64,000 nt of DNA from Terracidiphilus sp. GTDB lineage: Bacteria > Acidobacteriota > Terriglobia > Terriglobales > Acidobacteriaceae. How positions within the stretch are numbered: the first letter of the stretch is position 1; the number at the start of each line of letters is the position of its first letter. Both the position numbers and the translations under genes were made by a program. Where the stretch lies: the NCBI GenBank assembly GCA_050014335.1, contig JBEKDN010000001.1:1980-65979 (forward strand), given 5' to 3'. Positions 4,710 through 38,826 of the stretch are shown in pieces. The notes under the pieces are model-generated. The model was not told the DNA's origin, did no database searches, and saw only the letters and a list, made by a program, of their open reading frames with translations.

Positions 4710-4799
4710 CGTCTGTCCAGATTCTCCATCTTCCGTTCAGATTCGCGGGGGTTCATTTCTTTGTATGCAACTTCTCTGCCATAAGACAAGAATCAGATT

Positions 4800-4816: not shown

Positions 4817-5170
4817 CGCGCTGGTCACTTAAACGATAGATGTGGGTAATCCTCGCCTCGCTCATCGGTTCTTAGCGCGTTTTTTCTTAAAATATGTGTA
4901 AATATTTGCGCATAATAGCGAATCAATTACCACTTTTCGATGGTACTATGGGGGAGATGTAACGTGCGCTTTGAATCTGCGCGGGAGCGACCCCCCTATC
5001 CCTCCCAGTGCAGGATGTCCCTGGGTTAACAAAGTTTTTTATATCTCCTTCCGCGGACCACGGAAGGATAGCTGAAGTGTTTTTTGTTCTTGCTTCGGCA
5101 ACAACCATGAGGCGCGCGCATTTTCAGAGACGAGAAGGAACCGGGTCTGATTGAATTTCCAGGAGATTGA

Positions 5171-11733: not shown

Positions 11734-12045
11734 GTGTTTATCTCCGAGAGGAAGAATCCTGGCCGGAACCGTCGGCTCCGACGCATCGATTGTCGCACCG
11801 TCCGGCCATCGAAGGGAAACCCAAACGGGGAGTCCGCGGGGCAATCGCATGGGAGCGAGACCGGTAGGAACGGCTGCGAAAACTGGCGAAAAGGCGAGTA
11901 TTTTGGACGGAAAGGGCGATTTTTGTGGCCAAAAAGGTGGCAAAATGGGCGGTTTGCAGTTACTGATTGGTAAATACGCTGAAAATGCAAGCGATTGATA
12001 TAAAGCTTGTTACGGGAATTCTTTGTACAAAAAATGGGCTCCACA

Positions 12046-12064
12046 GGGTAGGGGGGGTGGGGGG
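12046..12064 (+). other. G-quadruplex-capable tract GGGTAGGGGGGGTGGGGGG
   Basis: Read directly. Its first 12 nt are identical to those of the tract at 10596. Confidence 0.5.
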
Positions 12065-12152
12065 TAGCGGATTTTTTGGAGAAGAAACAACGAAACTGAA
12101 TTGGGGAAACTGGTGTGTTTGGACGGATGGGATGAGCCAGACCTCGGGTTGA

Positions 12153-12306
12153 ACAGGCTGCGGAAAAAGTCTGGGATTGGGGTGGGATTTCCGAAGTATA
12201 TCCCTCAAGGGCTAAAGCTCGCCCTTTATTTTGAGGCAGTTGTGGCATGACTGAAGTCGTGCCCTGACGCTTGTAGCCTTTTTTGAAGAGTTTTTCCGGA
12301 GCATGT
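12153..12306. repeat. 154-bp element bounded by inverted copies of a 16-mer (ACAGGCTGCGGAAAAA / ACATGCTCCGGAAAAA), MITE-like
   Basis: The left copy (12153-12168) is on the + strand and the right copy (12291-12306) on the - strand. The same 16-mer brackets the IS remnant at 54766-55762. Confidence 0.4.
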
Positions 12307-12448
12307 GAAAACGAGTCTTTGGTCATGGCGGAATCTCCCTTCCCCTATTTACAGGATCTACCAATACACGGTAATTATCCGCAAAGATCCAGAAGAAAAA
12401 TGTAGGGCGCGTTTAAAAGAGATGGCCGTTGGTTCGGCTGCGGGGGTC

Positions 12449-12479
12449 AGCGAGTTAGCGAGTTAGCAGTTAGCTGATT
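12449..12479 (+). repeat. short tandem repeat AGCGAGTT x2 plus two degenerate units (AGCAGTT, AGCTGATT)
   Basis: Read directly in the noncoding gap. Confidence 0.8.
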
Positions 12480-12500
12480 GGCGGAGAGTAGCACTCGATT

Positions 12501-12515
12501 TGGCACGTTTGTTGG
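12501..12515 (+). promoter_or_regulatory. sigma-54-like -24/-12 element with a defective -12 (TGGCACGTTTGTTGG)
   Basis: A perfect TGGCACG with correct spacing, but TTGG replaces TTGC at -12. It lies about 165 nt upstream of the M1 peptidase start. Confidence 0.2.
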
Positions 12516-12679
12516 GCGGGCTTGCTGGGCAGGATTGTGGCAGGGTTGTGGGGCACTCGTATTTTTGAATGCGGTTGCCATATGGGAATCCGAGCGATTC
12601 CCGGTATATCGTATTTCGACGGCAACCCCTCTCATCGCCTATACTCGTTTCACAAAAATGATTCAAGAAGGAGCCTTCT

Positions 12680-15082
12680 TTGCCGATCCGCATTCGTCTG
12701 GCTTTTGTTCTCCTCGTCATTTTTCTTTACAGCGGATCTGTTGCGCTCAATGCCCAACATGCCGCCAACAGCAATGCCAGCTATCAACAGTTGCGTGGGC
12801 TGCTGCCGGGCAGCGAGGTTATCACGGTCAGTAATCTGGAACTGCACCGGGATGCGGCTACCTTCACCTTCCGCAGCGGCAGCTTTGCCTTATATGGCGA
12901 GGTGAACGGCAAGGTAACCGGCGCGGTCTTCAAAGGCGACGGCCATCTGCATATCACTCCGCCCACAGAGCAGGAGAAGCACAATCTCTCCATCCTCAAT
13001 CACACAGAGCAGTTCGACGAGGACTTCGACAAGGTGGTGCTGCGCTTCACCGACTCAACGGCAGCCGATCTGCGCAAAGCCGCCACCGGCAAAGGTGAAC
13101 CGGATTCGGCTTTCTCAAAAGAAGCCGAGGGTCTGCATGATTACGCGCGCCATCAACTCCACAACAATTTTGATTTGCGTTTGCTTCAGGACGTGCTGAG
13201 TCCAGTTCCTGGCGGCTACTTCTTCGCGGCCATTCACGGCAAGAAGAATGGGCATCTTTACTTCGAGTTCGATCCTCAGGGCTCTAGTGGCATTGCGCCA
13301 GAGGAGGTCTCGCTGCTCAGCAAGAATGACTCAGGCGAAACTTACCTGCTGGCTTTTCATCGCGCCGCCGAGTACACCGACGGGACGGCCAGCGGCAACG
13401 AGCACAACGCCGCTTACAAAATCGAAAGTGAAGATCTCGACGTCACCATCGAAAAAAGCGGCTTTCTATCCAGCCTGGCCACCGTCGAGTTGCGTGCTCA
13501 ACAGGATGGCGTCGCGGTGATTCCGCTCGATCTCTATTCCACGCTACGCGTCAGCAAGGTGGAAACCGCCAAGGGCGAAGCGCTCGACTTCGTCCAGGAA
13601 AAGAAGGACGACGATCCGGACTTTGGCGTGGTGCTGACGCAGGCTATCAACAAAGGCGAGACCGTAACTCTCAAGATCACATACGGCGGCAAGGATGTAG
13701 TTAGCAATGAGGGGAATGGGAACTACTATCCGGTTGCCCGTGAAGACTGGTATCCAAATTCCAGTCAAGGTTTGGGCGACTATGCGACCTACAAAATGCT
13801 CTTCCATGTACCAAAGGGTTTGCAGTTGATTGCCACAGGCACCAAGGTTAGCGAAAAGACAGACGGCGGCACGACTACCTCAGAGTGGAGGACGGAAGTA
13901 CCGCTGCCAGTTGTCGGCTTTGCACTCGGCGACTTTATGAGCAAGGAAGCCAAATTCAGCAATCCCAAAGGTGGAGATCTGACCATCGATGCTTACGCCA
14001 ACAAGCAGGCTCCGGACTTTGTCGCTCCTGTTGCAAATATCGGATTGGGCTCACTGACCACCACTCCCATGCTGGCCAATGAACTTAGCCAGGGCGAGGC
14101 TGCCGCGCAGATATACACCAACTATTTCGGTCCTCTGTCCTTCCCGCACATTGCATTGACCCAGCAATCGGCCTGCGACTACGGTCAAAGCTGGCCGATG
14201 CTGGTCTATCTGCCCATCTGCGGCTTCTTCGACGAGACTCAGCGGCATTTTCTTCTTGGCAGCAGCACGTACGATCTGTACTGGACCGTTGTAACACCTC
14301 ACGAGGTCGCGCACCAATGGTGGGGCCAGACCGTCGGCTTCCGCAGTTATCGCGATCAATGGATGAGCGAGGGCTTCGCGAACACCTCGGCCACCATCTA
14401 CATGCAGGCAACGGAGCCCAAGCAAGACAAGTACTTGGAATTCTGGAAGCAGCAGCGCAAGCTTATTACCGAAAAGAATGAGTTTGGCTTTCGGCCTATC
14501 GATGTCGGTCCGCTCACCATGGGCATCCGGCTTAGTTCGCCCAAGGCTGGCTGGGGAATCTACCAGAATCTTGTCTATCCCAAAGGCGCGTACGTCCTGC
14601 ATATGATCCGCATGATGATGTGGACTCCTAAAGACGGCGACGCCCGCTTCAAAGACACCATGCACGACTTCGTGGACAGTCATCGGCTGCAGGCCGCCAC
14701 TACTGAGGACTTCAAGGCCGCCGTCGAACGCCACATGAGTCCGCAGATGGATCTGGATGGAAACCACCGGATGGATTGGTTCTTCAATCAGTATGTCTAC
14801 GGAACGGATTTGCCCACTTATCACTTTGAGGGTCAGGCTACGCAGAATGGCGATGCGACGAGCTTGCATCTCAAGCTGGTGCAGTCGGGAGTCACGGACA
14901 AATTCAAGATGCTGGTGCCGATCTACCTGGAGCTGACCGACGGCAAGATTATCCGCCTGGGATCGTTCACCGTCAGTGGCAATAAGACGATTGAGCAGAC
15001 GGTGCCCCTGGGAAAGCTGCCGGCGCCGGTCAAGAAGGTGGCCATCAACTACTACTACGACGTGCTCTCGATCGAGAATTAG
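12680..15082 (+). CDS. M1-family zinc aminopeptidase, secreted
   Basis: TTG start with GGAG 7 nt upstream, a signal-like N-terminus, the HEVAHQWWG zinc motif and a downstream WMSEGFA glutamate. Confidence 0.85.
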   Translation: MPIRIRLAFVLLVIFLYSGSVALNAQHAANSNASYQQLRGLLPGSEVITVSNLELHRDAATFTFRSGSFALYGEVNGKVTGAVFKGDGHLHITPPTEQEKHNLSILNHTEQFDEDFDKVVLRFTDSTAADLRKAATGKGEPDSAFSKEAEGLHDYARHQLHNNFDLRLLQDVLSPVPGGYFFAAIHGKKNGHLYFEFDPQGSSGIAPEEVSLLSKNDSGETYLLAFHRAAEYTDGTASGNEHNAAYKIESEDLDVTIEKSGFLSSLATVELRAQQDGVAVIPLDLYSTLRVSKVETAKGEALDFVQEKKDDDPDFGVVLTQAINKGETVTLKITYGGKDVVSNEGNGNYYPVAREDWYPNSSQGLGDYATYKMLFHVPKGLQLIATGTKVSEKTDGGTTTSEWRTEVPLPVVGFALGDFMSKEAKFSNPKGGDLTIDAYANKQAPDFVAPVANIGLGSLTTTPMLANELSQGEAAAQIYTNYFGPLSFPHIALTQQSACDYGQSWPMLVYLPICGFFDETQRHFLLGSSTYDLYWTVVTPHEVAHQWWGQTVGFRSYRDQWMSEGFANTSATIYMQATEPKQDKYLEFWKQQRKLITEKNEFGFRPIDVGPLTMGIRLSSPKAGWGIYQNLVYPKGAYVLHMIRMMMWTPKDGDARFKDTMHDFVDSHRLQAATTEDFKAAVERHMSPQMDLDGNHRMDWFFNQYVYGTDLPTYHFEGQATQNGDATSLHLKLVQSGVTDKFKMLVPIYLELTDGKIIRLGSFTVSGNKTIEQTVPLGKLPAPVKKVAINYYYDVLSIEN

Positions 15083-18007: not shown

Positions 18008-19087
18008 ATGCGCGTGCTGTTTGCTACTAGTTATCCGTACCTGCCCCAGGCATTCAGCGGCGCCAAGATTTCCACGCACGCACTTGCGGTAGCCCTCAGG
18101 CAGCGAGACTTTCAAGTGGGTGTCCTGGGAGGGCTGCGGTCTGGAGACTGGTCCTGGTTCAGGAATCGGGTTATCTCGAAATTACGGGGTAGAGACGTAC
18201 TCACCAGGAACAAGTTTTGTGGTTATCCTGTCTTCAGAGGTTGGGGAACCGCCGGCATTCCGGAAGCGGTTAATAAATTCAAGCCAGATATCGTTCTTCT
18301 GCAAACATGCCCTCTTCGGGCATATGCTGACCTATTCATCGGCCTTGGGCTTCCCGTCATCATTTGCCTCCGCGACGCTACCTTTTGGGGCGGGAACCTC
18401 ATCGAACATCCGTCTCTTCGCTACATTGCCAATTCCGGGTTTATCGCTGGCAAGCTGCGCAATGTCTATGGTATTGAGTCGGAGGTTATCGCACCTTTAG
18501 TCTTGCCCGACCAATGCCAGATATCTACCACGAGAGAAAGCGTGCTGTTCGTGAATCCGGTGGAGGATAAGGGCGTTGAGATTGCTCTGAGTTTGGCCGA
18601 AGCGCGGCCGGACATTCCCTTTGAATTCGTTGAGTGCTGGGAACGCAGCGCAGCGCTACGTCGCAGCGAAAGGGTGCTGCGGTCAAAGAACATTCACTGG
18701 CACAAGCCTCGACTCAACGCAGCCGCTATCTACCGCAGAGCCAAACTGCTTTTAATGCCAAGTCAATGGGAAGAAGCATGGGGACGGTGCGCAACAGAAG
18801 CACATTTAAATGGAATCCCGGTGCTTGCTTCGCGGATCGGCGGCCTGCCTGAATCCGTTGGCTCGGGCGGCATTCTCGTTGACCCGAAGGCTCCAATCGA
18901 AGACTGGCTTGCGGCTCTGTCAAAAATGTGGGATGACAAACAGCAATACGACGCCCTCTCGCAAGAGGCGCTGAAGTATTCCCGGCGGCCGCAGATCCAG
19001 CCAGAGCTTCTGGTGGATCGCATGGCACAGTCAATCAGGGAGCACGCAGACGTGGGACAACGCCTTACTTTGGCGCATACTGGATGA
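18008..19087 (+). CDS. glycosyltransferase family 4
   Basis: ATG 18008 gives MRVLFATSYPY... The C-terminal EEAWGRCATEAHLNGIPVLASRIGGLPE is an E-x7-E-like region. Confidence 0.75.
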   Translation: MRVLFATSYPYLPQAFSGAKISTHALAVALRQRDFQVGVLGGLRSGDWSWFRNRVISKLRGRDVLTRNKFCGYPVFRGWGTAGIPEAVNKFKPDIVLLQTCPLRAYADLFIGLGLPVIICLRDATFWGGNLIEHPSLRYIANSGFIAGKLRNVYGIESEVIAPLVLPDQCQISTTRESVLFVNPVEDKGVEIALSLAEARPDIPFEFVECWERSAALRRSERVLRSKNIHWHKPRLNAAAIYRRAKLLLMPSQWEEAWGRCATEAHLNGIPVLASRIGGLPESVGSGGILVDPKAPIEDWLAALSKMWDDKQQYDALSQEALKYSRRPQIQPELLVDRMAQSIREHADVGQRLTLAHTG

Positions 19088-19141
19088 TCGGCGTAGTCGA
19101 TAGATATTGCAAAAGTAGATCTTCCGCAAGTGGTTCTCCTT

Positions 19142-20158
19142 TCATGCGGAACGATCAAGATCAACGTGTTTTGTTAGACCAAGACGTTGCAAATTGCGGA
19201 TGATCAATCGCTGATCGTAATCCGTCCATTTCTCGATGAACGCGGAAAGATTCCGAATTTTCACGGAGCCATAACGATTGCGGCGAGGAACCTCCGCTTT
19301 CAAAAAGGGACATCGCAAACTGGAAATCAGAACGTCCCATAAATACAATGTATTATTCACATCGCGCCCTCTAATCGCTTCATCGTGTTCGTGCCCCTGA
19401 TATCTCTCGGCTGCGGCGCGCGCCGCGAGATTTGAAATGTAAGCTTTCTGCCGAAGTCCGCGCTTTCTTGCAAGCGCCGATATTCCCAGTTCACAACGTT
19501 GAATCAATTTTTCCTTATTGACGATATAGCGGAAGTTGCGCCAAAATTCTTCAATAAATTGTTGGGTTGCATAGTTAATATCCCATACAAGAAAATATGA
19601 CTGAAGGTGCGAGTAGCCTTCCAGATTCTCTGTGACACCATACATATCGGCGTTCACAAACTGAGAGAACATCTCTGATAGGTCAAAGAGCGGCCCGTAT
19701 ACGCTATCATTGGCAAAGATGCACTGATCGAACCACCCCAGATTCCATCCTTTTTCTTGCATCTGCTGCCATGCCAGATTCCAGGAACCGAAATCCAGCG
19801 ATAACGAATTGCACGTGTAAATCCCGGCGCACAGCGGTGCAATTCTGGCAGCGGCTTCCGGCGTTAGTTGTGGCGATCCCGACACGAAAATGATTTCCGA
19901 TCCAAGCTCGTGAAGCTTTTCAAGATAGAAGCGAACATAATCATCGACCTCGTCGCGAGGATCGTAGTGAGCAAATAGCAAAAGCTTTTTCGCGCCGCCG
20001 CGCGGTCTGTCGGGCAGATCCTTCAGAGTCCGCGCCGTCATTCGGATAGCATTTCTGTCAACTTTATATCGCAGAGCGGTCAGATGATCCATCGCCAATC
20101 CGCACCCTCGGTGCAACTTCGCCAGGACCTTGTGGACTGTTATCTTTCTTAGATCCAT
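19142..20158 (-). CDS. rhamnan-synthesis protein F (RgpF)-like glycosyltransferase
   Basis: LLLFAHYDPRDEVDDYV, DFGSW, ANDSVYGP and HLQSYF blocks, as in PF05045-type proteins. Confidence 0.7.
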   Translation of the reverse strand: MDLRKITVHKVLAKLHRGCGLAMDHLTALRYKVDRNAIRMTARTLKDLPDRPRGGAKKLLLFAHYDPRDEVDDYVRFYLEKLHELGSEIIFVSGSPQLTPEAAARIAPLCAGIYTCNSLSLDFGSWNLAWQQMQEKGWNLGWFDQCIFANDSVYGPLFDLSEMFSQFVNADMYGVTENLEGYSHLQSYFLVWDINYATQQFIEEFWRNFRYIVNKEKLIQRCELGISALARKRGLRQKAYISNLAARAAAERYQGHEHDEAIRGRDVNNTLYLWDVLISSLRCPFLKAEVPRRNRYGSVKIRNLSAFIEKWTDYDQRLIIRNLQRLGLTKHVDLDRSA

Positions 20159-20248
20159 CTATTCTCCTAAGATTTGTTTCAAATCCATATTGGTCACGTT
20201 CTGTGGCGCGCGGAGATTATTTCTTATCCTTGTCCCAAAGGCGACGAG

Positions 20249-21286
20249 TCATTTCTCTCCGCGCGCCATCGCATATCTCCAGACTACGGCCGCCAAGAGT
20301 CTTGGCATCCGAAACTCGGAACGATAAGCCCCTTTTTTGTTTATCCAGCCATGCCAGGTTCCCGCCAGGATTGCATTGCAAGCGTCTTGATTTTCCCTGC
20401 ATGCGCGCAAATTCCGCATCATCCTGTCAAATGCCCACCACGACCGCCTCAGAGCACCAATTGGCCCCAGATGCTTTCTCCAGAACCAATACTCGTTTCG
20501 GGCCCAGTAATACCAATAATGCGGCTTCATTTCCAATGGATTGTTGTTTCTGTTCTTCTCTTCGTGCCGCACTATATGATTCTCATCGACTATATTGCGA
20601 AACCCTGCCTGGGAACTACGCAACGAATAATCAATGTCTTCAAAGTATGCGAAGAATCTTTCATCCAACATGCCTATCTTTCGAATTAGCGATGTCTTGA
20701 CAAGCATCGCCGTGCCCAGAGCCAAGCCGGCATTTGGATACTTTTCAGCCCAGCGCCGCGCCTCTTCCGGATCGCAAGTCTCATCGTAGATGACAGGATT
20801 TACCGAACAGACGCCGCCGCAATAGGTCAAGCGTTTCTCAACGCCCGGCACGGCGATCCTTGGTGTCGCTAAACCGATCTTCGGGTCGCTTTCGGCCAGC
20901 GCAACCAACGACTGGAGTGTATCTTTATCCACGACCTCCGAATCGTTATTCAGAAGCCAAACATAGTCCACGCCGGCAGCCAACGCGTGCTTGAATCCCT
21001 CGTTGCAGCCGCCGGTATAGCCCCGATTTTCCGGCAGTTCCAGCAGATCAACTCGATCGCCGCAAAAGCTTCTCAAATGCTCAACAGATCCATCTGCAGA
21101 TCCGTTGTCGATCATCAAGACGCGTAGGTTCCAGTAGTTCAGACGCAACACCGATTCGACCGAATTCAATGTTGCTTTCCATCCGTTCCAATTGAGAGTC
21201 ACCACCAAGACCGAAGGCTGCGATACGCCGACAGCGCCTCTTTCTTCGCGTGACATATCGATTCCCCTCTCAAAACGCATAGACAA
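20249..21286 (-). CDS. glycosyltransferase family 2
   Basis: VLVVTLNWNG...LMIDNGSADGS (DxD-type GT-A N-terminus) and LLNNDSEV. Confidence 0.8.
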   Translation of the reverse strand: MSMRFERGIDMSREERGAVGVSQPSVLVVTLNWNGWKATLNSVESVLRLNYWNLRVLMIDNGSADGSVEHLRSFCGDRVDLLELPENRGYTGGCNEGFKHALAAGVDYVWLLNNDSEVVDKDTLQSLVALAESDPKIGLATPRIAVPGVEKRLTYCGGVCSVNPVIYDETCDPEEARRWAEKYPNAGLALGTAMLVKTSLIRKIGMLDERFFAYFEDIDYSLRSSQAGFRNIVDENHIVRHEEKNRNNNPLEMKPHYWYYWARNEYWFWRKHLGPIGALRRSWWAFDRMMRNLRACRENQDACNAILAGTWHGWINKKGAYRSEFRMPRLLAAVVWRYAMARGEK

Positions 21287-22132
21287 TTACTTCTTCGCTA
21301 AATCGAGCAGGCGCGGATCCCAAAGAATAGAAGCAATATTTTCATTATGCATAGCAAATTCACGGCCCGCCTGCGCGTGAAAACGGAAGAACTCAACCGA
21401 AGTGAGTTCACCGGGGAACAACCAATCGTGTGGCTCCATCAAGATGAGGGGGAATTGATTCAAATCAGAAGCGGAACCTGCGAACAACGATTTCTCCGCA
21501 CCCTCGATATCTACTTTGAGAAGGAACGGAACATATTCGGAACTTGGTTTAGAGGCCAAGATAGTTTTGAGTGAAATAATATTGATTCCGATACCGTCGC
21601 GGGAGTTATTTGTTCTGCACCCCAGTGTGCCATCAGGGTTGTTCATCCACGCTTTGCCGTCGATTGAACCGATTCCCGCCTCTCTCAAGTCCACATCGAA
21701 TCCAGAGCAATTCTTGAAAAGCAATGCGAAGTTCGCTGGCGATGGTTCCACGGCAACGATGTGGGCTTCGGGATATCGCGCCGTGAACCACAAAACACTG
21801 GCCCCGATATTAGCCCCGCAATCCACGATCAATGGCTTCTTTCCCGAGGCAATAATTTCGCGATAGATTCGCTCAGTGAGTACACCATGCGCGCCCGTGG
21901 GAATATCGTACTGACATTCGCAGAAGCACTGATCGATCGCAAGCTTGTCATAACTCCATCTCCGGTGCACGATGGAGAAATTTCGCTGCCTGCACGATGC
22001 GCGAGTCACTGTCCATTCGAGCGGCAAGTCAGGGTGCCTTAGTCGACGGGCGAGATGGATGAGTGCCTGGATCGGGCGATAAAACAGCCGACCCAACGGT
22101 GTGGCCGTTAATCTATTCATTTCCAAGCGCAT
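21287..22132 (-). CDS. FkbM-family SAM-dependent methyltransferase
   Basis: IVDCGANIGASVLWF...IVAVEPSPANF motif. Starting at ATG 22132 avoids a 31-nt overlap with the upstream gene. Its stop abuts the GT2 start. Confidence 0.7.
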   Translation of the reverse strand: MRLEMNRLTATPLGRLFYRPIQALIHLARRLRHPDLPLEWTVTRASCRQRNFSIVHRRWSYDKLAIDQCFCECQYDIPTGAHGVLTERIYREIIASGKKPLIVDCGANIGASVLWFTARYPEAHIVAVEPSPANFALLFKNCSGFDVDLREAGIGSIDGKAWMNNPDGTLGCRTNNSRDGIGINIISLKTILASKPSSEYVPFLLKVDIEGAEKSLFAGSASDLNQFPLILMEPHDWLFPGELTSVEFFRFHAQAGREFAMHNENIASILWDPRLLDLAKK

Positions 22133-22173
22133 TTTGAACCTCTCACAAGCTAGTGGCACGGGTATGAAAACGA

Positions 22174-23211
22174 TTACGGCCAATATTTCCCCGTGACGCG
22201 GCACACCGAAGTTTGAACACGAAAGCGGTTCCAGCTTTGACCGCCAATCCCAATTCGCCTAACATCTGTCGGGGATATCTTCCCCTGCAAATTCACTCCG
22301 CCATAAAATGAAAAGGCAGCCCGGTAGCCCGCCTCGCGCGCGGCCTTTTGGGTTTGTTCCGTAAAACTTGTTTTGCCGCCCACCGGGTAAGCAATTGCGT
22401 CAGGCGCGGCGCCAAGTTTCTCCATCAGAATTTCCCTCGATTTCGATAACTCCTCTAACTGTTTTATTGGTTCCAATTGACTCAACACATGGTGCGAGTG
22501 CGTATGGGAGCCGATCGCCATGCCGCCTGCAATCATCTCGCGCGCTTCATCCCAATTCAAAAAGCGCCGCAGCGTTTCAGGTAATTCTCTACCTTTTGCC
22601 GCATCAGACAGCTCTTGCATAAATCGCGCGGGATCGGAATTCTCAGGCCTTTTATATAATCGCAAGACTTCACGCAAGCATTTTTCAAGGCCTTTTTCAT
22701 CCATGTCCACGGTTAGATCGCATGGATAATGCAGGGAGAAGCTGCGCTTTTGCGCGGTCTTTATCAAGTAGGCAATCCGATCCCACCAGGGAAGATGACA
22801 GGAACCAACCATACTTGTCGCAACAAAGAAAACTCCTTGCACACCATGCGAACGCAGAACAGGAAACGCGAGACTATAGTTATCCAGATAGCCGTCGTCA
22901 AATGTTATCAGAACGCGGCAACTGCGAGTTTCTTCTTTGCTTGTTCCGTCGATAAATGCCAGCGCCTCTTCCAGAGTTATCAAAGAAACGCGGCGCTTCA
23001 AATAGGAAATCTGATGGTCAAGCTCATCGGCAGTCGCTGAAAAAACTCCCGGATCGAAGAGATCGTCTTTAGCGTTCCCGATGCGATGATAATTCAAAAC
23101 CAGTAGCGAATTGCGCGCTGGAAGCTGCGAAAAAAGAAAAGATGCGCCGCTCCAGAACAGGCCGCGCGCTAACCATTCACGTTTTCCGCCCATGCTTGAA
23201 CCGCCCGTCAT
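22174..23211 (-). CDS. polysaccharide deacetylase (NodB-homology, CE4)
   Basis: LITFDDGYLDNY, the HGVQGVFFV block, and the later histidine-rich IGSHTHSHHVL. Confidence 0.8.
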   Translation of the reverse strand: MTGGSSMGGKREWLARGLFWSGASFLFSQLPARNSLLVLNYHRIGNAKDDLFDPGVFSATADELDHQISYLKRRVSLITLEEALAFIDGTSKEETRSCRVLITFDDGYLDNYSLAFPVLRSHGVQGVFFVATSMVGSCHLPWWDRIAYLIKTAQKRSFSLHYPCDLTVDMDEKGLEKCLREVLRLYKRPENSDPARFMQELSDAAKGRELPETLRRFLNWDEAREMIAGGMAIGSHTHSHHVLSQLEPIKQLEELSKSREILMEKLGAAPDAIAYPVGGKTSFTEQTQKAAREAGYRAAFSFYGGVNLQGKISPTDVRRIGIGGQSWNRFRVQTSVCRVTGKYWP

Positions 23212-23273
23212 AATTACCGATCATAGCAGCAGATTATATTTCTCAAAGGTCGGTGCGGCGAGCGCCGGAAAGT

Positions 23274-23948
23274 TCATGCACGCGTATTCCCACCGCGCGC
23301 TCGCAGCACAAACTCACGTACTTTGGCCGGATCCTTGCGACCCGGCGCAGTCTCAACACCTGAGACCGCATCCACGCCCCAGGGGCGCAGCGTGGAGATT
23401 GCCTCGCTTACATTCTCCGGGGTAAGCCCGCCCGCGGCAATCAGCTTGCACGCTCTCGCATCTTGAAAAAGAGTTTCGCGGCCGGCAACCCAGTCAAAGG
23501 CCACACCTGTACCACCAGCGGCTTTGGCCGCACGCGAGTCCACCAACACCGCATCCACGTGAGTGTCCCGAGAGTAGGCGGCGATTCGCATCTCACACAT
23601 CTCAGAACTCTCGCCGCCAAAGTGGAGGACCCGCAAAATGCGCAGTTCCGGCCTCAGCCGTTCGTGAATCCTTGCCGGCAACTCAGGCGGCGCGTCAAAG
23701 TGCAATTGCACACCGGTCAATCCGCAGTCTTCAACTGTGGAGGAAATCGCGTCTAGTGTTGTATCGACAAAAACTCCGATCTTTTCCACCTTCGCGGGCA
23801 GATGCGAAACAATAACCGCTGCTTGCGCCGCGGAAACCCGTCGCGGACTGGGCGCAAAGACAAAGCCGAGCGCGTCAGCACCCGCTTCAACTCCCAGCAG
23901 CGCGTCTTCGATCGAAGTATTTCCGCAGATCTTGATCCAGATACTCAT
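23274..23948 (-). CDS. trpF: phosphoribosylanthranilate isomerase
   Basis: IKICGNTSIEDA...GADALGFVFAPSPRRV. Overlaps the trpC stop by 4 nt. Confidence 0.9.
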   Translation of the reverse strand: MSIWIKICGNTSIEDALLGVEAGADALGFVFAPSPRRVSAAQAAVIVSHLPAKVEKIGVFVDTTLDAISSTVEDCGLTGVQLHFDAPPELPARIHERLRPELRILRVLHFGGESSEMCEMRIAAYSRDTHVDAVLVDSRAAKAAGGTGVAFDWVAGRETLFQDARACKLIAAGGLTPENVSEAISTLRPWGVDAVSGVETAPGRKDPAKVREFVLRARGGNTRA

Positions 23949-32147: not shown

Positions 32148-33569
32148 TCAGGCGTTTCGTTCGACCATGCAGATAAAGAAACCGTCTGTGTGGAACCTTC
32201 CCGGAAGCAAGCGCAAATACCCCTCCGGCGTGAGGGAACCATGCAGCCCCTCCGCGCCGTCCCGCGTAAGAACTCCCTCGCCGAGCAATTCCCCAATGCG
32301 AGTTTCAAGCGAAACCACACGTGCATCCGGAGTTACAGCAAGCACTGCCGCGACCACGTGCTCGTTCTCCTCGGGCTCCAGCGAACAAGTCGAGTAGACG
32401 ACACACCCGCCCGGACGGACAGTCCGCACCGCCGCGCCGAGAATCGCCCGCTGCCGCGCGGCTTGTCGCGCCAGGTCTTCCGCCCGGAGCCGGTGACGAA
32501 TCTCCGGGTTTCGGCCCAGCGTCCCAGTGCCGCTGCACGGCACATCGGCCAATGCAAGGTCGAATATCGATTCTTCTCTAAGCTCAGTTGCGTCGGCAAG
32601 CCGGCACTCCACTCTGTTGCCAAGATGCGTCAGCCTCTTCCGCAACTGCTCCAGCCTCGGTGCGCTGGCTTCAAGCGCAAGGATGTGTGCCTGCGGGTTG
32701 CGCTCTGCAAGGATCAGCGTCTTTCCACCAGGAGCCGCACACGCATCGAGAATTCTCTTTACCTTTTGTTCGAGATTCTGGTGTGATCGTCCAGCCAGCT
32801 CAGCTACCAGTTGTGAGCCTTCGTCTTGAAACCGCACCCGTCCCTCGCGGTAGGCTTCAGTCGCAGCGACGTCTCCAGCAACCACCGATCTCGCGGCGGT
32901 CAGTAATGCGCCAGCTTCGAGGACAATCCCTTCCACGGCGAGCTCGTCCGCTACTTCGCGGTTGGCGAGTCTCACCATAAGCACCGGCTGCTTCTGGCCA
33001 TAAGAACAGATAGACTGCGCGGTATTCACGCCGTAGAAGCCAATCCAGCGCTCAACCATCCAAGTTGGATAAGCTTCCAGCTCGCCTGTAGAGCTTATTT
33101 CTAAACCACGCTGTTCTTCAGTTGTCTGAGCCTTTGCCAGCTTCCGCAGCACGGCATTCACCATGCCGGATGCGAATCTATGACCGGCCTGCTTGGCCAA
33201 TTCCACGCTTTCGTCAATGGCGGCGCGCGCCGGAATGCGATCCATGTACAGAATCTGAAAGGCGCCCATGCGCAGCGAAATCAGAATCTCAGCATCGAGC
33301 TTGGCGTTGGGGTGGTCAAGAAGAGTTTGCAGTTGGCGATCAAGCTGAATCTGCCAGCGCAGCACGCCCAGCACCAGCGCGGTTGCCAGGTTGCGGTCGG
33401 CAGCCGCAAGTGCATTGACGGCCTGGCCGCGCAGCAGATCGTCGGAGTGCGATTGCCCACGTTCGACAGCAAGCAGAATCTGAAATGCCACCTTGCGCGA
33501 CCGGGATAATTCCGTCTTGCGATTCTTCGGCGCGGTTTTTTTTGCGCTTGCCTTCTTCACAGCGCTCAT
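32148..33569 (-). CDS. rsmB: 16S rRNA (cytosine-C5)-methyltransferase RsmB/Sun
   Basis: NusB-like N-terminus, DACAAPGGKT SAM motif, DVPCSGTG and STCSLEPEENE catalytic cysteines. Confidence 0.9.
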   Translation of the reverse strand: MSAVKKASAKKTAPKNRKTELSRSRKVAFQILLAVERGQSHSDDLLRGQAVNALAAADRNLATALVLGVLRWQIQLDRQLQTLLDHPNAKLDAEILISLRMGAFQILYMDRIPARAAIDESVELAKQAGHRFASGMVNAVLRKLAKAQTTEEQRGLEISSTGELEAYPTWMVERWIGFYGVNTAQSICSYGQKQPVLMVRLANREVADELAVEGIVLEAGALLTAARSVVAGDVAATEAYREGRVRFQDEGSQLVAELAGRSHQNLEQKVKRILDACAAPGGKTLILAERNPQAHILALEASAPRLEQLRKRLTHLGNRVECRLADATELREESIFDLALADVPCSGTGTLGRNPEIRHRLRAEDLARQAARQRAILGAAVRTVRPGGCVVYSTCSLEPEENEHVVAAVLAVTPDARVVSLETRIGELLGEGVLTRDGAEGLHGSLTPEGYLRLLPGRFHTDGFFICMVERNA

Positions 33570-34528
33570 GGCGTCCCGATTCCCAGCCGCGCGCCGTCGC
33601 TCAGCACATTTCCGCGCAAAAACTCGGCTGCGGTAAGCCGCTTCTTTCCTTCCAGTTGAAGCTCAATTAGCTCAAGCCAACTCTCACCGGCACAGGCAAC
33701 AAAGAGCCGGTGATCTTCCATATGAATCTGGCCCGGCTCTGCCGCAACTGGGATCGCAAAGGTCGAAGCGTCGGCAACCGCTAGCCGGTGAGCGATCAGT
33801 TTTTTTCCGTTGAGAGTCGTAAAAGCTCCTGGCCAAGACTGAAAGCCGCGCCAGCGATTCCGCAGTTCCTTCGCCGTGCGCGCCGCAAAATCCATGCGCC
33901 CGTCCTCGCGTGTTAGTAGCGGAGCTAAAGTGGCTCCTTCAGAGTTCTGCGGCCGTGGCTGAAGGCTTCCGCCTTTCAGGCCCTCAAGCGTCTTGAGAAC
34001 CAGCGGCGCGCCACCAACCGCTAACTCATCAAAGAGCTGCGCCGCACTCAAGTCCGGTGCGATGGCGAAGGCTCGCTGCAGCAGGATCGGCCCAGTGTCC
34101 AAGCCCTCATCCAGCAGCATCGTAGTGTTGCCTGTGACAATATCCCCATTGGCCAGCGCCCATTGAATCGGCGCGGCCCCGCGATAGCGCGGCAGTAGAC
34201 TGGCGTGAAGATTGATGCACCCCAGTCGCGGCAGAGCTAGCATCCAGGGAGGAATCAGACGTCCATATGCCACCACTACGATGGCGTCGGGCGCAATCGC
34301 TTCCAGTTGCGCGCGGAACTCTGGGTTGGTGCGAATCTTCTCCGGCTGCGTCACGGTCAGGCCTGCTGCCAGCGCGGCTTGCTTCACCGGTGGAGCGGCA
34401 AGCTGCTGATCGCGTCCCACCGGCCGATCCGGCTGAGAGACGACGAGCGCAACTTCGTGCTCAGCCTCGCGCAAGGCTTCGAGAGTGGGCACGGCAAAGC
34501 GTGGAGTTCCGCAAAAGACCAGCTTCAT
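33566..34528 (-). CDS. fmt: methionyl-tRNA formyltransferase
   Basis: MKLVFCGTPRFAVP..., and HASLLPRYRGAAPIQWA. Confidence 0.93.
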   Translation of the reverse strand: MKLVFCGTPRFAVPTLEALREAEHEVALVVSQPDRPVGRDQQLAAPPVKQAALAAGLTVTQPEKIRTNPEFRAQLEAIAPDAIVVVAYGRLIPPWMLALPRLGCINLHASLLPRYRGAAPIQWALANGDIVTGNTTMLLDEGLDTGPILLQRAFAIAPDLSAAQLFDELAVGGAPLVLKTLEGLKGGSLQPRPQNSEGATLAPLLTREDGRMDFAARTAKELRNRWRGFQSWPGAFTTLNGKKLIAHRLAVADASTFAIPVAAEPGQIHMEDHRLFVACAGESWLELIELQLEGKKRLTAAEFLRGNVLSDGARLGIGTP

Positions 34529-34532
34529 GCCC

Positions 34533-35042
34533 TTACCACACGCCGTCGCGCTGCATCTTGCGAATCTTGCGCAGCGCCAACTCGCGTTTCAGGGCACTCA
34601 TGCGGAAGATGAACAGCATTCCGTCCACGTGGTCGATCTCATGCTGAAGGCAGCGCGCCAGCAGATCGTCGCCGTCCTTCTCGAACCATTTACCCGTCTC
34701 GTCCTGCGCGCGCACGCGCACCTGGGCCTTGCGAACCACCTTCTCGCGGATCTCCGGGAAGCTCAAGCAGCCTTCCTCTTCATAGAGCTTGCCCGCGCTC
34801 GATACGATCTCCGGATTGATGAGCACCAATTTCTCTTTTGGATTCTTGCCCATGCTAAGGTCGATGACCGTCAAGCGCTTGGAAACATTCACTTGCGGCG
34901 CCGCCAGTCCAATGCCCTTTTCGGCATAGGTGGTCTCGAACATGTCGTCGACAAGCTTGCGCAGCGCCGCATCGAATTCGGTGATAGGTTCACCGGGCCG
35001 CGAGAGGACGGGATCGGGATATTTGACAATCTTCAGAATCAT
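34533..35042 (-). CDS. def: peptide deformylase
   Basis: ATG 35042 gives MILKIVKYPDPVL. Contains GIGLAAPQV, EGCLSFP and QHEIDHVDG motifs. The start overlaps the stop of the upstream HEPN-like gene (ATGA). Confidence 0.93.
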   Translation of the reverse strand: MILKIVKYPDPVLSRPGEPITEFDAALRKLVDDMFETTYAEKGIGLAAPQVNVSKRLTVIDLSMGKNPKEKLVLINPEIVSSAGKLYEEEGCLSFPEIREKVVRKAQVRVRAQDETGKWFEKDGDDLLARCLQHEIDHVDGMLFIFRMSALKRELALRKIRKMQRDGVW

Positions 35043-35596
35043 TTGGGTATTGAAGACACTCCAAGTTGATCGGGCTGCTTTGCCCACTTATTGCCGAAAA
35101 TGACTGTTGCCAAAAACAGCTTTGCTTCGCCGGTAAATTGCGCGCGGTTCCAAGCATCAATAAGCAGCTTGGCTTTATCTACGCTCTCAGATGCCCAAGA
35201 TAGGCCTACCTTGCCATCCGCATCTACGACATCATAATCGGCAAGATGCCGCTCATCCTGCAACTCTTCGAAAATATCGGCAATCGTTGCGAGGTCAGGC
35301 GAATATGCGCAAGGTACAGCGACTTCTTCTGACAATCTTTTCACGCTATCAGGGGTGAGAAATCGAGCCATCGCATTCTTCATCGCGCGATGCTCCAGCG
35401 CCCTTTGCGACCTGCCGCGCAATCCATCTGGTTCCTGCGGACTCACCTGTTCCGCAACAGCCGCTGCAATCAAATGAAACACCGCGTAATAAGAAGCCGA
35501 CACGGCTCGACGAAAGTCGACATCGATAGCATCAGCAGCAGCAAGCAACTTCGATGCGTGGCCGAGTAGGTCATCAGCTAGCGACAAGCAGGGCAC
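35039..35596 (-). CDS. HEPN-like all-helical protein
   Basis: FRRAVSASYYAVFHLIAAA helix and C-terminal LQDERHLADYD helix, as in PF05168-type HEPN. RSQRALEH fits Rx4-6H. GTG 35596 or TTG 35587 as start. Low G+C. Confidence 0.5.
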   Translation of the reverse strand: MPCLSLADDLLGHASKLLAAADAIDVDFRRAVSASYYAVFHLIAAAVAEQVSPQEPDGLRGRSQRALEHRAMKNAMARFLTPDSVKRLSEEVAVPCAYSPDLATIADIFEELQDERHLADYDVVDADGKVGLSWASESVDKAKLLIDAWNRAQFTGEAKLFLATVIFGNKWAKQPDQLGVSSIPK

Positions 35597-36059
35597 TCCG
35601 CTCTTCTTTCGCCGAGAATTGAATCCGAGTGGACTGATGCTCTGGATCTACGTCCACGAATTGAAATTTCTCGCGTAGCTTCAAATAGAAGTTATTCCAG
35701 ACACGAGCTTTATCTGGAGAGGGAATTACGTTAGGCTTCAAGTGAAAATAGACCATTACCCGTGGAGTTCCATCGTACATCTCATCGAATTTCACATCAT
35801 ATCTTCCAACGACAAAATCATCGGGCCACGGACCGCACTCGTCCAGGATCTGAGGGAGCACCTTTCGCACCTTTTCTTCAGGTGGGCACGTCATCATGGG
35901 ATAGCGAATGCCATCCAATGTCAGTCCCGGATTCAAGGACTCAAGCCTGAAAAGGTAATGACCGTCGTCACCAACCTTGCGGTCCTCAATCACGAACCTT
36001 CCCTTGTAACCAAAGACCTCGACCTTTTCGTCAACTTTCGGAGTGAAGTCAATATCCAT
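35574..36059 (-). CDS. hypothetical protein, no recognisable domain (partner of the HEPN-like gene)
   Basis: 161-aa ORF starting ATG 36059, 42 nt downstream of aroC. Overlaps the HEPN-like gene by 14-23 nt. Local G+C is about 41% (49/120, nt 35641-35760). Confidence 0.55.
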   Translation of the reverse strand: MDIDFTPKVDEKVEVFGYKGRFVIEDRKVGDDGHYLFRLESLNPGLTLDGIRYPMMTCPPEEKVRKVLPQILDECGPWPDDFVVGRYDVKFDEMYDGTPRVMVYFHLKPNVIPSPDKARVWNNFYLKLREKFQFVDVDPEHQSTRIQFSAKEERSALLVAS

Positions 36060-36101
36060 CTCACTCCTCCTTTACCAGTGTACCCCGAATTGAATTCCCG
36101 G

Positions 36102-37280
36102 TTAATACACCCTTATCTGTTCGATGTACCCAGCAAAATTCCGTTGCAACTCCATCGCGGAATCGCCGCCGAACTTATCCTGCACGGCTTTGGCAAGCAC
36201 CAGCGCCACCATCGCCTCGGCCACCACTCCGGCCGCCGGCGCAACGCAAATATCGCTCCGCTCATAACTTGCGCTGGTGGCCTCGCGGCTGTCAAAGCGC
36301 ACCGAGGCAAGCGGCTTGCGCAGGGTCGAAATCGGCTTCAGATGGCCGCGCACTACAATATCCTCGCCGTTTGAGACGCCGCCCTCCAGGCCGCCGGCAT
36401 TATTCCGCGGGCGCGTGAAACGTGTTGGCTGGCCTGTCTCTTCCCGTGCGTAATAGATCGGATCGTGAACCACCGAGCCAAAGCTCTCCGCCGCCATCAC
36501 GCCTCGGCCAATCTCGACCCCTTTGACCGCCTGAATACTCATCACCGCCCAGGCCAGCAGCCCGTCCAGCTTCTCGTCCCAATTGACGTATGTCCCCAGG
36601 CCAGCCGGAACCCCGTGCGCCACCACCTCAAAGATGCCGCCCACCGTGTCGCCGGTGCGGGCTGCTTCCTCGACCTCTTCCTTCATGCGCGCCTCGGTCG
36701 GCTCATCCACGCAACCGAGAACCACATCGTCTTTGCTAGCCAGCGCGGCAATCTCGTTCCATGTCGCGGCCCGCTCCATTTCCACTTTGCCCACGCGAAC
36801 CACATGGCTCAGCACTTCAATTCCCACTGTACGCAACATCAGCTTGGCAAAGGCCCCGGCCGCCACGCGCGCCGTGGTCTCGCGGGCCGACGCGCGCTCC
36901 AGCACGTAACGGGCATCGGGAAAATTGTACTTCAGAGCGCCTGCCAGATCCGCATGGCCAGGCCTGGGCGAGGCAACCGCTTGATGCAGCGCCGGATCGC
37001 CGGCGGCAACAGGCAATTTCGCCTCCCAGTTCTTCCAGTCGCGGTTGACCAGCTCGATCGCAATCGGCGCGCCGATCGTCTTGCCGTGGCGCACGCCGCT
37101 CAAGACGTGGGCCTTGTCGGTTTCAATCTTCATGCGGCCGCCGCGCCCATAGCCCTGCTGACGGCGCCAAAGTTCGCGATTGATAAATTCCAGATCCACC
37201 GGCACACCGGCTGGCAGCCCTGAGAGCAGCGCAATCAGCGCCTCCCCATGTGACTCCCCGGCAGTTGAAAAACGAATCAT
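36102..37280 (-). CDS. aroC: chorismate synthase
   Basis: ATG 37280 gives MIRFSTAGESHGEAL. Contains the GRSSARETA-like RASARETTARV and the LEGGVSNGE-type GGLEGGVSNGEDI. Confidence 0.93.
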   Translation of the reverse strand: MIRFSTAGESHGEALIALLSGLPAGVPVDLEFINRELWRRQQGYGRGGRMKIETDKAHVLSGVRHGKTIGAPIAIELVNRDWKNWEAKLPVAAGDPALHQAVASPRPGHADLAGALKYNFPDARYVLERASARETTARVAAGAFAKLMLRTVGIEVLSHVVRVGKVEMERAATWNEIAALASKDDVVLGCVDEPTEARMKEEVEEAARTGDTVGGIFEVVAHGVPAGLGTYVNWDEKLDGLLAWAVMSIQAVKGVEIGRGVMAAESFGSVVHDPIYYAREETGQPTRFTRPRNNAGGLEGGVSNGEDIVVRGHLKPISTLRKPLASVRFDSREATSASYERSDICVAPAAGVVAEAMVALVLAKAVQDKFGGDSAMELQRNFAGYIEQIRVY

Positions 37281-37420: not shown

Positions 37421-37723
37421 GTGACTCTTACTCCTCAAACTCGAGCGCTCACCAATTACCGCAAACGCCTCAGTCAACGCGGAATGGCGCGATTTGAAGT
37501 CCTGGGACTCTCGACGGATCGCGAACTGATCCGTTCACTGGCCCGGCAGTTGGCCGAGGATAATCCTGAGGCCAAGGAGCTTCGCGCCTCCGTGCATCGC
37601 TGCATCCGAGCGCAATCGCTGAACAAGGGCGGCATCCTTGCCGCATTGCGCCGTTCTCCCTTGGTTGGAGCCGATCTCAACCTCGCTCGTCCGCGCATCG
37701 ATGGCCGAGAGGTAGATTTGTAA
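37421..37723 (+). CDS. vapB: type II antitoxin (VapB-type partner of the PIN toxin)
   Basis: GTG start with GAGG 5 nt upstream. 100 aa. Its stop overlaps the vapC start (TAATG). The C-terminal ...DLNLARPRIDGREVDL tail resembles VapB/FitA toxin-binding tails. Confidence 0.65.
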   Translation: MTLTPQTRALTNYRKRLSQRGMARFEVLGLSTDRELIRSLARQLAEDNPEAKELRASVHRCIRAQSLNKGGILAALRRSPLVGADLNLARPRIDGREVDL

Positions 37724-38154
37724 TGCGCTATTTGCTCGACACCAACATACTCAGCAACGTCACCAAGCCCGCGCCCTCCGAGCCGCTTCTAGCCTGGATG
37801 GCAGAGCAAGCCGACGAGGATTTGTTCATCGCCTCACTGGTCGTTGCAGAAATTTGGTTTGGAGTGCTGGATATCCCACCCGGAAAGAAGCGCGTTCAGT
37901 TGGAGAAATGGTTTACCGGTTCAGAAGGGCCGCAAGCATTGTTTGCTGGCCGTGTTCTCCCCTTCGACGAGAAGGCCGGCTTGATCTGGGCGCGCCTGAT
38001 GGCCGAGGGCGAGAGATCCGGGCAACCGCGCAGCGCTTTGGATATGATTGTGGCCGCCGTTGCGGAAACCAACGATTGCATCGTGGTCACCGATAACGAA
38101 AAGCATTTTTCTGGACTGAAGTACATCAATCCGATGCGGACTCAGATCGGTTAA
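37723..38154 (+). CDS. vapC: PIN-domain toxin VapC
   Basis: MRYLLDTNILS (first acidic residue), ...SLVVAEIWFG (E), ...DMIVAAVA and VVTDNEKHF (distal acidic residues). Confidence 0.85.
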   Translation: MRYLLDTNILSNVTKPAPSEPLLAWMAEQADEDLFIASLVVAEIWFGVLDIPPGKKRVQLEKWFTGSEGPQALFAGRVLPFDEKAGLIWARLMAEGERSGQPRSALDMIVAAVAETNDCIVVTDNEKHFSGLKYINPMRTQIG

Positions 38155-38403
38155 TAGCTCCAGATACCATATTTTCAGGGGATGTGATGCGTTTCCGAAC
38201 CACGAAAACCACAATTGTTCCCTACGTGAACGTGCTAATGCCCTAGTGGGGCAAATCAAGTAATGGACCCCCAAAATACTCTCCGACTTTTGACATCGAA
38301 AATTTAAAAGTTCCATATCGTGATCTGTAGTCGACAGGTTAATTTAACTCCCGCTTTTCGGACACGGGAGGTCGCGGATTTCTATTGGCCAACAATTCCT
38401 TTA

Positions 38404-38430
38404 TCCCTATTCCCAATTTCCGCTTCCCTC
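38404..38430 (+). repeat. pyrimidine heptad tract in the EVE-gene leader (TCCCTATTCCCAATTTCCGCTTCCCTC)
   Basis: Read directly, 15 nt upstream of ATG 38446. Related to the tract at 37303-37329. Confidence 0.6.
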
Positions 38431-38445
38431 GCGTACCATCTCCCC

Positions 38446-38826
38446 ATGAGCTACTTCCTCTTTAAAACCGAGCCAGACGTCTACTCCTTCGACGATTTCC
38501 TGCGGGACAAAGAGACCATCTGGGATGGCGTAACCAACCCTACCGCCGTCAAATTCCTGCGTGAAATGAAGGCCGGAACCAAGTGGATCTTCTACCACAC
38601 CGGAGACGAACGCACCGCCGTCGGCACGGGAACCGTGGTGAGCGTGGACCCCACCGACCCCAAGGTTCCCATTGTCAAAGTCAAGGCTGGCAAGCGCCTC
38701 AAGACCCCAAAGACGCTAGCGGCCATCAAGGCTGAGCCGCTCTTTGCCCAGTCGCCGCTGGTCCTCATCGGACGGCTCTCCGTGGTTCCGCTCACACAAG
38801 AGCAATGGGATTGGTTCTTGGCCTAA
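38446..38826 (+). CDS. EVE (PUA-like) domain protein
   Basis: MSYFLFKTEPDVYSFDDFL...TIWDGVTNPTAVKFLREMKAGTKWIFYHTGDE..AVGTGTVV follows the EVE consensus. Confidence 0.8.
   Translation: MSYFLFKTEPDVYSFDDFLRDKETIWDGVTNPTAVKFLREMKAGTKWIFYHTGDERTAVGTGTVVSVDPTDPKVPIVKVKAGKRLKTPKTLAAIKAEPLFAQSPLVLIGRLSVVPLTQEQWDWFLA

Follow-up and report, generated by a model that had tools for sequence, protein, structure and literature searches.

What are two small, overlapping genes doing between aroC and def, inside an operon of essential genes? The question is raised by a 64,000-nucleotide (nt) stretch of Terracidiphilus sp. DNA (contig JBEKDN010000001.1 of GenBank assembly GCA_050014335.1, positions 1,980 to 65,979; "the window" denotes this whole stretch), in which gene X and an adjoining gene for a HEPN-like protein form a cassette at 35039-36059. 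Our answer, held with slightly better than even confidence, is that the cassette is an accessory, toxin-antitoxin (TA)-like two-gene module with a new partner, lodged where aroC and def would otherwise meet on a Terracidiphilus-like chromosome (Acidobacteriaceae). Both open reading frames (ORFs) are real genes under purifying selection, the ratio of nonsynonymous to synonymous substitution rates (dN/dS) between orthologs being 0.08 to 0.34 for X and 0.12 to 0.29 for the HEPN gene, with 0.05 to 0.22 for the flanking genes. Neither X nor its pairing with a HEPN protein is described in Pfam, NCBIfam, PADLOC, the Protein Data Bank (PDB), or the literature that we searched, whereas the HEPN side belongs to a known clade.

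The case for a module begins with the constancy of the pair. X is always adjoined by a downstream HEPN gene, with an overlap of about 14 nt (…GCTAGCTGA…) and an internal Shine-Dalgarno sequence, and the same overlap is seen in loci L001 to L008, L014, L039 to L042, and L094 (L-numbers are our labels for the loci of relatives). A survey of gene neighborhoods, which a first-pass annotation of this DNA had proposed as a check on the pairing, finds the two genes together wherever X occurs, in more than 15 independent loci. Moreover, the divergences of X and of the HEPN protein covary (Spearman 0.74). Two small codirectional genes with overlapping frames that recur as a pair have the general makeup of a TA system.

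The HEPN-like protein and its partner

The HEPN-like protein has 96 homolog clusters; its residues are numbered here on the 185-amino-acid (aa) form that starts at a GTG. The first-pass annotation had recognized it as a HEPN protein, and profile comparisons back that call: 12 of the 33 aligned family members match PF05168 (HEPN), the best with an E value of 5.5e-6, and against the PDB the family profile matches 9xbd, a "HEPN domain-containing protein" (9e-4), and 2hsb, the UPF0332 protein AF0298 (1.9e-3), with both alignments spanning the QDxR(H/N)xxDYD helix. The AlphaFold2 (AF2) model, with a predicted local distance difference test score (pLDDT) of 91.5, is all-alpha and has eight helices; as evidence for a HEPN fold, the modeled structure is supportive at most.

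Conservation within the alignment locates the likely functional residues in places other than the canonical ones. R29, R30, S33, Y36, Y37, F40, H41, Q113, R116, D120, and Y121 are invariant, and at least 90% of the sequences share R65, H69, H117, and D122. The LQDERHLADYD helix, previously taken for a HEPN hallmark, carries the motif-equivalent arginine, R116, at the end of helix 100-121, but the canonical Rx4-6H motif is missing, since the residues at +4 to +6 after R116 are D120, Y121, and D122, with no histidine among them. The RSQRALEH stretch, which had been read as the Rx4-6H motif itself, is a different site: its R62 is not conserved, and it holds R65 and the alternative histidine H69. 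This R65-x3-H69 element sits in helices 59-79, between helices 25-51 and 100-121, that is, in the helix 2-3 insert. Loss of the motif histidine, together with an alternative conserved histidine contributed by the helix 2-3 insert, has been described for the AF0298-like HEPN-T proteins and AbiV (Anantharaman et al., PMC3710099), and the window protein presents the same combination of an invariant R116, no canonical histidine, and H69 in the insert. Because the motif histidine is lost and the alternative one lies in the helix 2-3 insert, we place the protein in the HEPN-T branch and not among the canonical Rx4-6H ribonucleases (RNases); sequence features thus support its assignment as a noncanonical member of the HEPN superfamily, in the AF0298/UPF0332-like HEPN-T branch (PF05168).

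Proteins of the AF0298/UPF0332 type (PF05168; PDB 2hsb, 1wwp, and 1o3u) resemble the window protein in profile, in the retained motif arginine, in the absence of a histidine at +4 to +6, and in the histidine of the helix 2-3 insert. The window protein differs from them in its length, which exceeds theirs by about 45 residues and includes three additional helices (59-92) in that insert, in falling under the Pfam threshold, and in being paired with X, being neither standalone nor associated with a minimal nucleotidyltransferase (MNT). HEPN-T (PF05168-type) proteins abound, and little is known of what they do when they are not paired with an MNT. Several 102-aa "HEPN" database entries (P0072-P0081; L098 1797-2309 and L100 1797-2309) were considered as truncated toxin genes and rejected as annotation artifacts. 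They begin at an internal methionine (MKNAMA…), while the complete frame is intact and overlaps X; because this intact frame has its GTG start straight after an in-frame TGA, we attribute the short entries to the gene caller.

Gene X belongs to a small orphan family. Homologs of X form 27 clusters when grouped at 90% identity, and an exhaustive profile search among 1.84 billion proteins yielded only 10 representatives (50% identity); X has no match in Pfam, NCBIfam, or PADLOC, and a sequence search of the PDB returned noise only. The AF2 model (pLDDT 86.7) predicts a small N-terminal beta-barrel (residues ~10 to 57; strands 12 to 57), an alpha-beta-beta-alpha-beta domain at 60 to 151, and a disordered tail. 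This tail, KEERSALxAAS, is conserved though disordered in the model, and its last codons double as the HEPN start; also invariant is a D96-G97-x-P99 loop. With Foldseek, the model gave no convincing global match and no nucleotidyltransferase in the PDB or BFVD, the partial resemblances being generic (SH3/PWWP-like barrels, ferredoxin-like domains, and many phage proteins of 50 to 80 aa). These negative results in Pfam, NCBIfam, PADLOC, the PDB, and Foldseek agree with the first-pass annotation, which could assign X to no family and held that it was not an MNT. A divergent MNT was indeed considered and rejected: the GSx(n)DxD motif is absent from the alignment, and neither the Pfam and NCBIfam searches nor Foldseek pointed to a nucleotidyltransferase.

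Beyond the X-HEPN loci, distant HEPN relatives that are 30 to 39% identical have in common the motifs RRxVSxxYYAxFH, R…H, and QxxRHxADYD. Their genes occur in other surroundings (at pyrG/yraN in two genomes, beside an autotransporter, and near dapB), and two are plasmid-borne, one on an Acidisoma plasmid beside rep, ParA, and integrase genes and one on the conjugative plasmid pRL23b2 of R. leguminosarum. A patchy accessory distribution and an association with mobile DNA, through these distant members on Acidisoma and Rhizobium plasmids, are again what is generally seen with TA systems. Each distant relative is directly preceded by an unannotated gene of 91 to 125 aa. A related pair in a second lineage, made up of a 91- to 105-aa partner and a 167-aa HEPN-like protein, has a different fixed location: at L009 (4677-5504) and L095 (2501-3286), it is flanked by pyrG and a UPF0102 (yraN-like) gene.

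The short partners share a beta-turn-beta-helix-beta pattern with the C-terminal domain (C-domain) of X, as in DGTPRVMVYF, DGDPILLVDV, and HGEPSVYVTY. Alignment of the X C-domain with them by hhalign gave E values of 0.14, 0.0092, and 0.0023 and probabilities of at most 12.6%, which is suggestive and not significant; for the 105-aa partner, homology searching yielded just 2 proteins, a number insufficient to build a profile. It is possible, though on balance doubtful, that X-HEPN is the best-sampled branch of an undescribed TA or defense family, in which a HEPN-T RNase (Rx4Y plus the alternative histidine) would be controlled by a small alpha/beta protein other than a nucleotidyltransferase. 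The short partners (~100 aa, including the plasmid-borne ones) would then be homologous to the X C-domain, and the N-terminal beta-barrel added in X would serve as an exchangeable module for specificity or sensing.

Distribution and history at the aroC|def junction

All six species-representative genomes that carry X are Terracidiphilus or Acidobacteriaceae metagenome-assembled genomes, and all have the order aroC-X-HEPN-def-fmt-rsmB, which is kept unchanged by the more divergent cassette types (L007, L014, and L042). To this set we added a metagenome scan anchored on def, which gave 80 closest loci with 78 to 87% identity to the def of the window. aroC directly adjoins def in 70 of them (including L061 and L062), and the cassette is present in 10. 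The first-pass annotation had suggested comparing the aroC-def interval among relatives; the comparison establishes that the pair is not universally conserved, and a core function of the lineage is rejected by the 70 empty sites.

Spacers between aroC and def at the empty sites measure 6 to 66 nt, apart from those of L061 and L062, which are about 220 nt long. In most cassette-free relatives (L015-L094 range; for example, L017 1722-1740), only 6 to 11 nt separate the two genes, and other cassette-free relatives have spacers of 30 to 66 nt with an ACGGAGC of their own. At many empty sites, the def Shine-Dalgarno sequence (GGAG) lies within the last codons of aroC, in the arrangement CGGAGCTAT-TAG-N7-10-ATG, which implies tight coupling of aroC and def. 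The long spacers of L061 and L062 (217 and 220 nt) are deletion scars that retain the 5' spacer of the cassette and about 80 nt of the 3' end of the HEPN gene (blastn, 2.7e-8; tblastn, 5.8e-6). Empty sites and scars together show that loss of the cassette is tolerated.

These findings bear directly on the downstream end of the cassette. In the window, the family's TAG stop has become CAG at 35077-35075, and the HEPN frame consequently crosses the former spacer, adding 12 codons, to a TGA that overlaps the ATG of def (ATGA, 35042-35039). The extension is missing from all 32 aligned homologs, whose C termini fall at …WAK or no more than a few residues from it; in L003, for instance, WAK-TAG precedes a spacer that is homologous to the 12 extra codons. 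The fusion of the HEPN stop to the def start, to which the first-pass annotation had drawn attention, is thus present in the window but private to its genome and not a feature of the family. In the relatives, HEPN-def spacers are 10 to 40 nt long and contain their own GGAG, so that anchoring of the cassette by coupling to an essential gene is not general. The relatives that lack the cassette, the two scars, and the def Shine-Dalgarno sequence in the end of aroC contradict the further claim that def translation would suffer if the cassette were lost. A HEPN-def fusion in L003 and L094 was also considered and rejected, as a true TAG stop is present and the apparent fusion is a tblastn read-through.

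The base composition of the cassette stands out, with a G+C content of 50.1% against 57.2% for the window, which puts it among the lowest 1.9% of 1021-nt segments. Recounting reproduced exactly the two figures on which the first-pass annotation had based its remark on AT-richness, namely 49/120 G+C (41%) at 35641-35760 and 39/60 (65%) in def at 34621-34680. At third codon positions, the G+C fraction is 0.49 to 0.54 in the cassette genes, 0.77 in def, and 0.72 in aroC. Low G+C is found in the cassette at every locus of the relatives and therefore does not date the insertion or mark a recent arrival. A recent foreign insertion is rejected, given that both the low G+C and the cassette itself are common to relatives whose X proteins are only 23 to 50% identical. 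Of the earlier description of the cassette as a foreign insert, what stands is that it interrupts an otherwise contiguous junction, empty in 70 of 80 loci; it is not recent, however, but old in the clade and diversified, with X identities of 23 to 94%.

The alleles have a history of their own. Cassette presence is unclustered on a tree of aroC, def, and fmt (2 of 11 nearest neighbors of carriers are themselves carriers; permutation P = 0.62), a tree that is star-like and weak in topology. Between genomes, identities range from 41 to 86% for the HEPN protein and from 23 to 94% for X, with 73 to 88% for the flanks, and the identity of the cassette shows no correlation with that of the flanks (rho of -0.20 and 0.06). 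L003 and L042, for example, are 93% identical in aroC and only 26% in X, while in the pairs L003/L094 and L006/L007 the synonymous divergence (dS) of the cassette is below that of aroC and fmt. The window allele is mosaic with respect to that of L003, with identities of 78% for the HEPN protein, 59% for the X C-domain, and 29% for the X N-terminal domain (N-domain). As an insert, the cassette is old, variable, and dispensable; it keeps to one site, where it is exchanged or lost independently of the genes around it, and close relatives may have it or be without it.

A proposed toxin-antitoxin-like module and its alternatives

We propose that the HEPN-T protein is a probable RNase or RNA-binding effector, in which R116, at the end of helix 3, would form a polar cluster with H69 and R65 from the helix 2-3 insert. 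The upstream, translationally coupled X would fill the position of the MNT in classical HEPN pairs without having the MNT fold. It most likely restrains the HEPN protein through direct binding, with contacts that may be made by the conserved C-terminal alpha/beta domain, by the tail, or by both, and its fast-diverging N-terminal beta-barrel may provide specificity or sense a trigger. RNase activity, toxicity, neutralization by X, and cotranscription of the genes are what we infer, whereas the gene structure, the family assignment, the pairing, the patchy distribution, the scars, and the selection on both genes are observed. The HEPN gene is disrupted in L023 (2688-2978; deleted after about residue 70), in L039 (344-790) and L040 (2584-3093), where a stop directly follows DYD, and possibly in L046; X is disrupted in no locus and is intact beside the HEPN pseudogenes.

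The proposed logic, in which a HEPN effector is held inactive by binding of a small protein encoded next to it, is that of RnlA-RnlB and LsoA-LsoB. Neither the sequences nor the architectures of those systems are related to the X-HEPN pair: RnlA is large, has several domains, and carries the canonical motif, and X is not homologous to RnlB. AbiV, a lactococcal abortive infection protein, has been grouped with the AF0298-like HEPN-T proteins on account of its alternative conserved histidine (PMC3710099) and has been shown to be an RNase that works with a second component (preprint 10.1101/2024.05.05.592566). For AbiV, an RNA antitoxin (type III) is reported, whereas X, the partner here, is a protein that is conserved and subject to purifying selection; nor was any sequence match to AbiV found.

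Several observations weigh against a TA-like module. On its own, the window HEPN protein has no Pfam match at an E value of ≤1, nor does it match NCBIfam, and PADLOC-DB 2.0 contains no family that matches X or the HEPN protein at an E value of ≤1. Foldseek hits of the HEPN model in the PDB are weak, with E values all above 0.2 (1wwp, probability 0.80 and template modeling score 0.46; 7ae6, probability 0.57; and 6m6u), and no relatives of the HEPN protein were found on IMG/VR viral contigs. X has no DNA-binding domain of the type that type II antitoxins usually carry. To our knowledge, toxicity or RNase activity is not established for AF0298-like HEPN-T proteins in general. The decay of the HEPN gene and not of X goes in the direction expected of a toxin and its antitoxin, but the cases are few and come from metagenome assemblies. 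Finally, the position of the cassette in the clade, always at the same site beside translation-related genes, could point to a local function.

A proposal that overlaps mechanistically with ours and differs in the biological role is that of an abortive-infection or defense system, in which the beta-barrel of X, acting as the sensor, would recognize a phage component and the HEPN RNase would be released upon infection. Such a role would fit the concentration of divergence in the X N-domain, as compared with the X C-domain and the HEPN protein, when the window allele is set against that of L003, and likewise the hypervariable alleles at a fixed locus, uncoupled from their flanks, and the persistence of low G+C across the clade. 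Links to phages exist on both sides of the pair, since the predicted fold of the X N-domain resembles many small uncharacterized phage proteins and the HEPN protein matches the phage family phrog_5176 (2.6e-7); furthermore, HEPN RNases are common effectors of defense (PMC3710099; preprint 10.1101/2024.05.05.592566). We nevertheless consider a defense role unlikely, if worth keeping in view: no PADLOC model was matched, the cassette stands in no defense island and is the sole cassette type at its site in 80 loci, and the dN/dS of X is well below 1 in close pairs (0.00 to 0.19 in the N-domain), so that its divergence looks like allele swapping and not like measured positive selection.

The fixed position also invites the idea that the pair is accessory and nontoxic and acts locally, in the def-fmt-rsmB operon (translation start and rRNA methylation), the HEPN protein being, for example, an RNA-binding regulator of the transcript and X its cofactor. 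In the clade, the cassette is invariably found directly 5' of def and is read in the same direction, and the spacers are short and lack a terminator; HEPN domains that are catalytically inactive and regulate by binding RNA, such as that of MtlR, are known (PMC3710099), and the canonical histidine of Rx4-6H is absent here. A local role is hard to reconcile, however, with the 70 of 80 close relatives that lack the pair and have an identical operon structure, with the scars that show the pair to be deletable, or with the distant members in unrelated contexts (pyrG/yraN, autotransporter, and dapB) and on plasmids. The conserved polar set R29, R30, H41, R65, H69, R116, H117, D120, and Y121 suggests an active site more than a plain binding surface, and we judge this second alternative to be less probable again.

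The HEPN-MNT pair HepT-MntA (type VII) resembles the X-HEPN cassette in its upstream partner and downstream HEPN gene, its overlapping frames, its accessory distribution, and the tyrosine near the motif arginine. It differs in that X is no MNT, in that the window protein is of the HEPN-T and not the DUF86/HepT type and has no RxxxxH, and in that AMPylation is a feature of HepT-MntA. A type VII-like mechanism, in which X would be an enzyme of new fold that covalently modifies the HEPN protein, for example at the invariant Y121, as MntA AMPylates HepT, can draw on the location of this tyrosine at R+5, near the position of the modified HepT tyrosine (PMC13000451), and on the invariant D96-G97-x-P99 loop of X, but it is very improbable given that X has neither GSx(n)DxD nor a nucleotidyltransferase match in Pfam or Foldseek, that it has few conserved residues of catalytic type, and that the ~100-aa partners of the distant relatives look too small for an enzyme.

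If the cassette is indeed a TA-like module, it would reveal a second, protein-only class of partner for HEPN-T proteins and a new antitoxin or regulator fold, and it would offer a tractable case for studying the RNase activity of HEPN domains without the canonical histidine. Apart from that, the locus gives a clean natural view of how a conflict-type cassette persists in an essential-gene operon (aroC|def) as a polymorphism both of presence and of allele, complete with deletion scars and, in the window genome, with a single lost stop codon that joins it translationally to def. The immediate impact is modest because the module occurs only in a small set of Acidobacteriaceae, uncultured and from peat and soil, and its function is so far inferred.

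Layout, expression signals, and neighboring genes

The gene order, the shared minus strand, and the spacings given by the first-pass annotation were all reproduced in our ORF analysis (table below). From aroC to rsmB, the successive junctions are a gap of 42 nt, an overlap of 14 or 23 nt depending on the HEPN start, the ATGA overlap, a gap of 4 nt, and a 4-nt overlap. The TTG at 35587 is the likely HEPN start because homologs begin with M[S/P]LAD; it has a GGAG 8 nt upstream and gives a protein of 182 aa and an overlap of 14 nt with X.

Features of the cassette and its operon in the window
Feature	Coordinates	Strand	Evidence or remark
rsmB	32148-33569	minus	
fmt	33566-34528	minus	
def (peptide deformylase)	34533-35042	minus	Pfam Pep_deformylase, 4.5e-54; first gene downstream of the cassette
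HEPN-like gene	35039-35587 (182 aa, TTG) or 35596 (185 aa, GTG)	minus	Homologs, alignment, profiles, AF2 model
12-codon HEPN C-terminal extension, QPDQLGVSSIPK	35039-35077	minus	Confined to the window genome
X/HEPN junction	35574-35599	minus	HEPN TTG 35587-35585 within the final X codons; GGAG 35599-35596
Gene X (161 aa; tail KEERSALLVAS)	35574-36059	minus	ORF, AF2 model, dN/dS
aroC-X spacer	36060-36101	minus	Block TTCAATTCGGGGTACACTG at 36094-36076; X Shine-Dalgarno AGGAGG 36071-36066
aroC (chorismate synthase)	36102-37280	minus	Pfam Chorismate_synt, 2.2e-111; upstream of the insert

The block TTCAATTCGGGGTACACTG in the aroC-X spacer includes a -10-like TACACT (36082-36077) and is conserved in 12 loci, both scars among them, even where X identity is about 45%; it may be a promoter or operator of the cassette. 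In the homologous spacers (L001-L007, L023, L094, L061, and L062), it takes the form TTCAATTCGgGGTA(C/A)ACT, with a tandem AATTC-AATTC. Scans for promoters and terminators gave no excess over shuffled sequence and nothing significant for a promoter on the cassette strand, and an Rfam scan of 34800-36300 returned nothing. The cassette has no evident terminator and is probably cotranscribed with def-fmt-rsmB.

Just upstream of aroC and on the opposite strand, a VapBC-like pair at 37421-38154 (plus strand) consists of a 100-aa ORF abutting a 143-aa PIN-domain protein (PF01850, 4.8e-13). It adjoins aroC, and a second TA-type module therefore flanks the same operon; it is kept next to aroC in L002 and L006, and the other relatives are without it. 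An EVE-domain protein (PF01878, 9e-28) is encoded at 38320-38826 (plus strand) in surroundings of low G+C (0.45 to 0.46 around 38100-38500), and its gene is also kept near aroC in L002 and L004. Elsewhere, low-G+C stretches occur at 4351-5372 and 11651-13022, and the largest low-G+C island of the window, at 18551-23472 (minimum, 0.48), is a polysaccharide biosynthesis cluster that encodes GT4 and GT2 glycosyltransferases, an RgpF-like protein, an FkbM methyltransferase, and a polysaccharide deacetylase.

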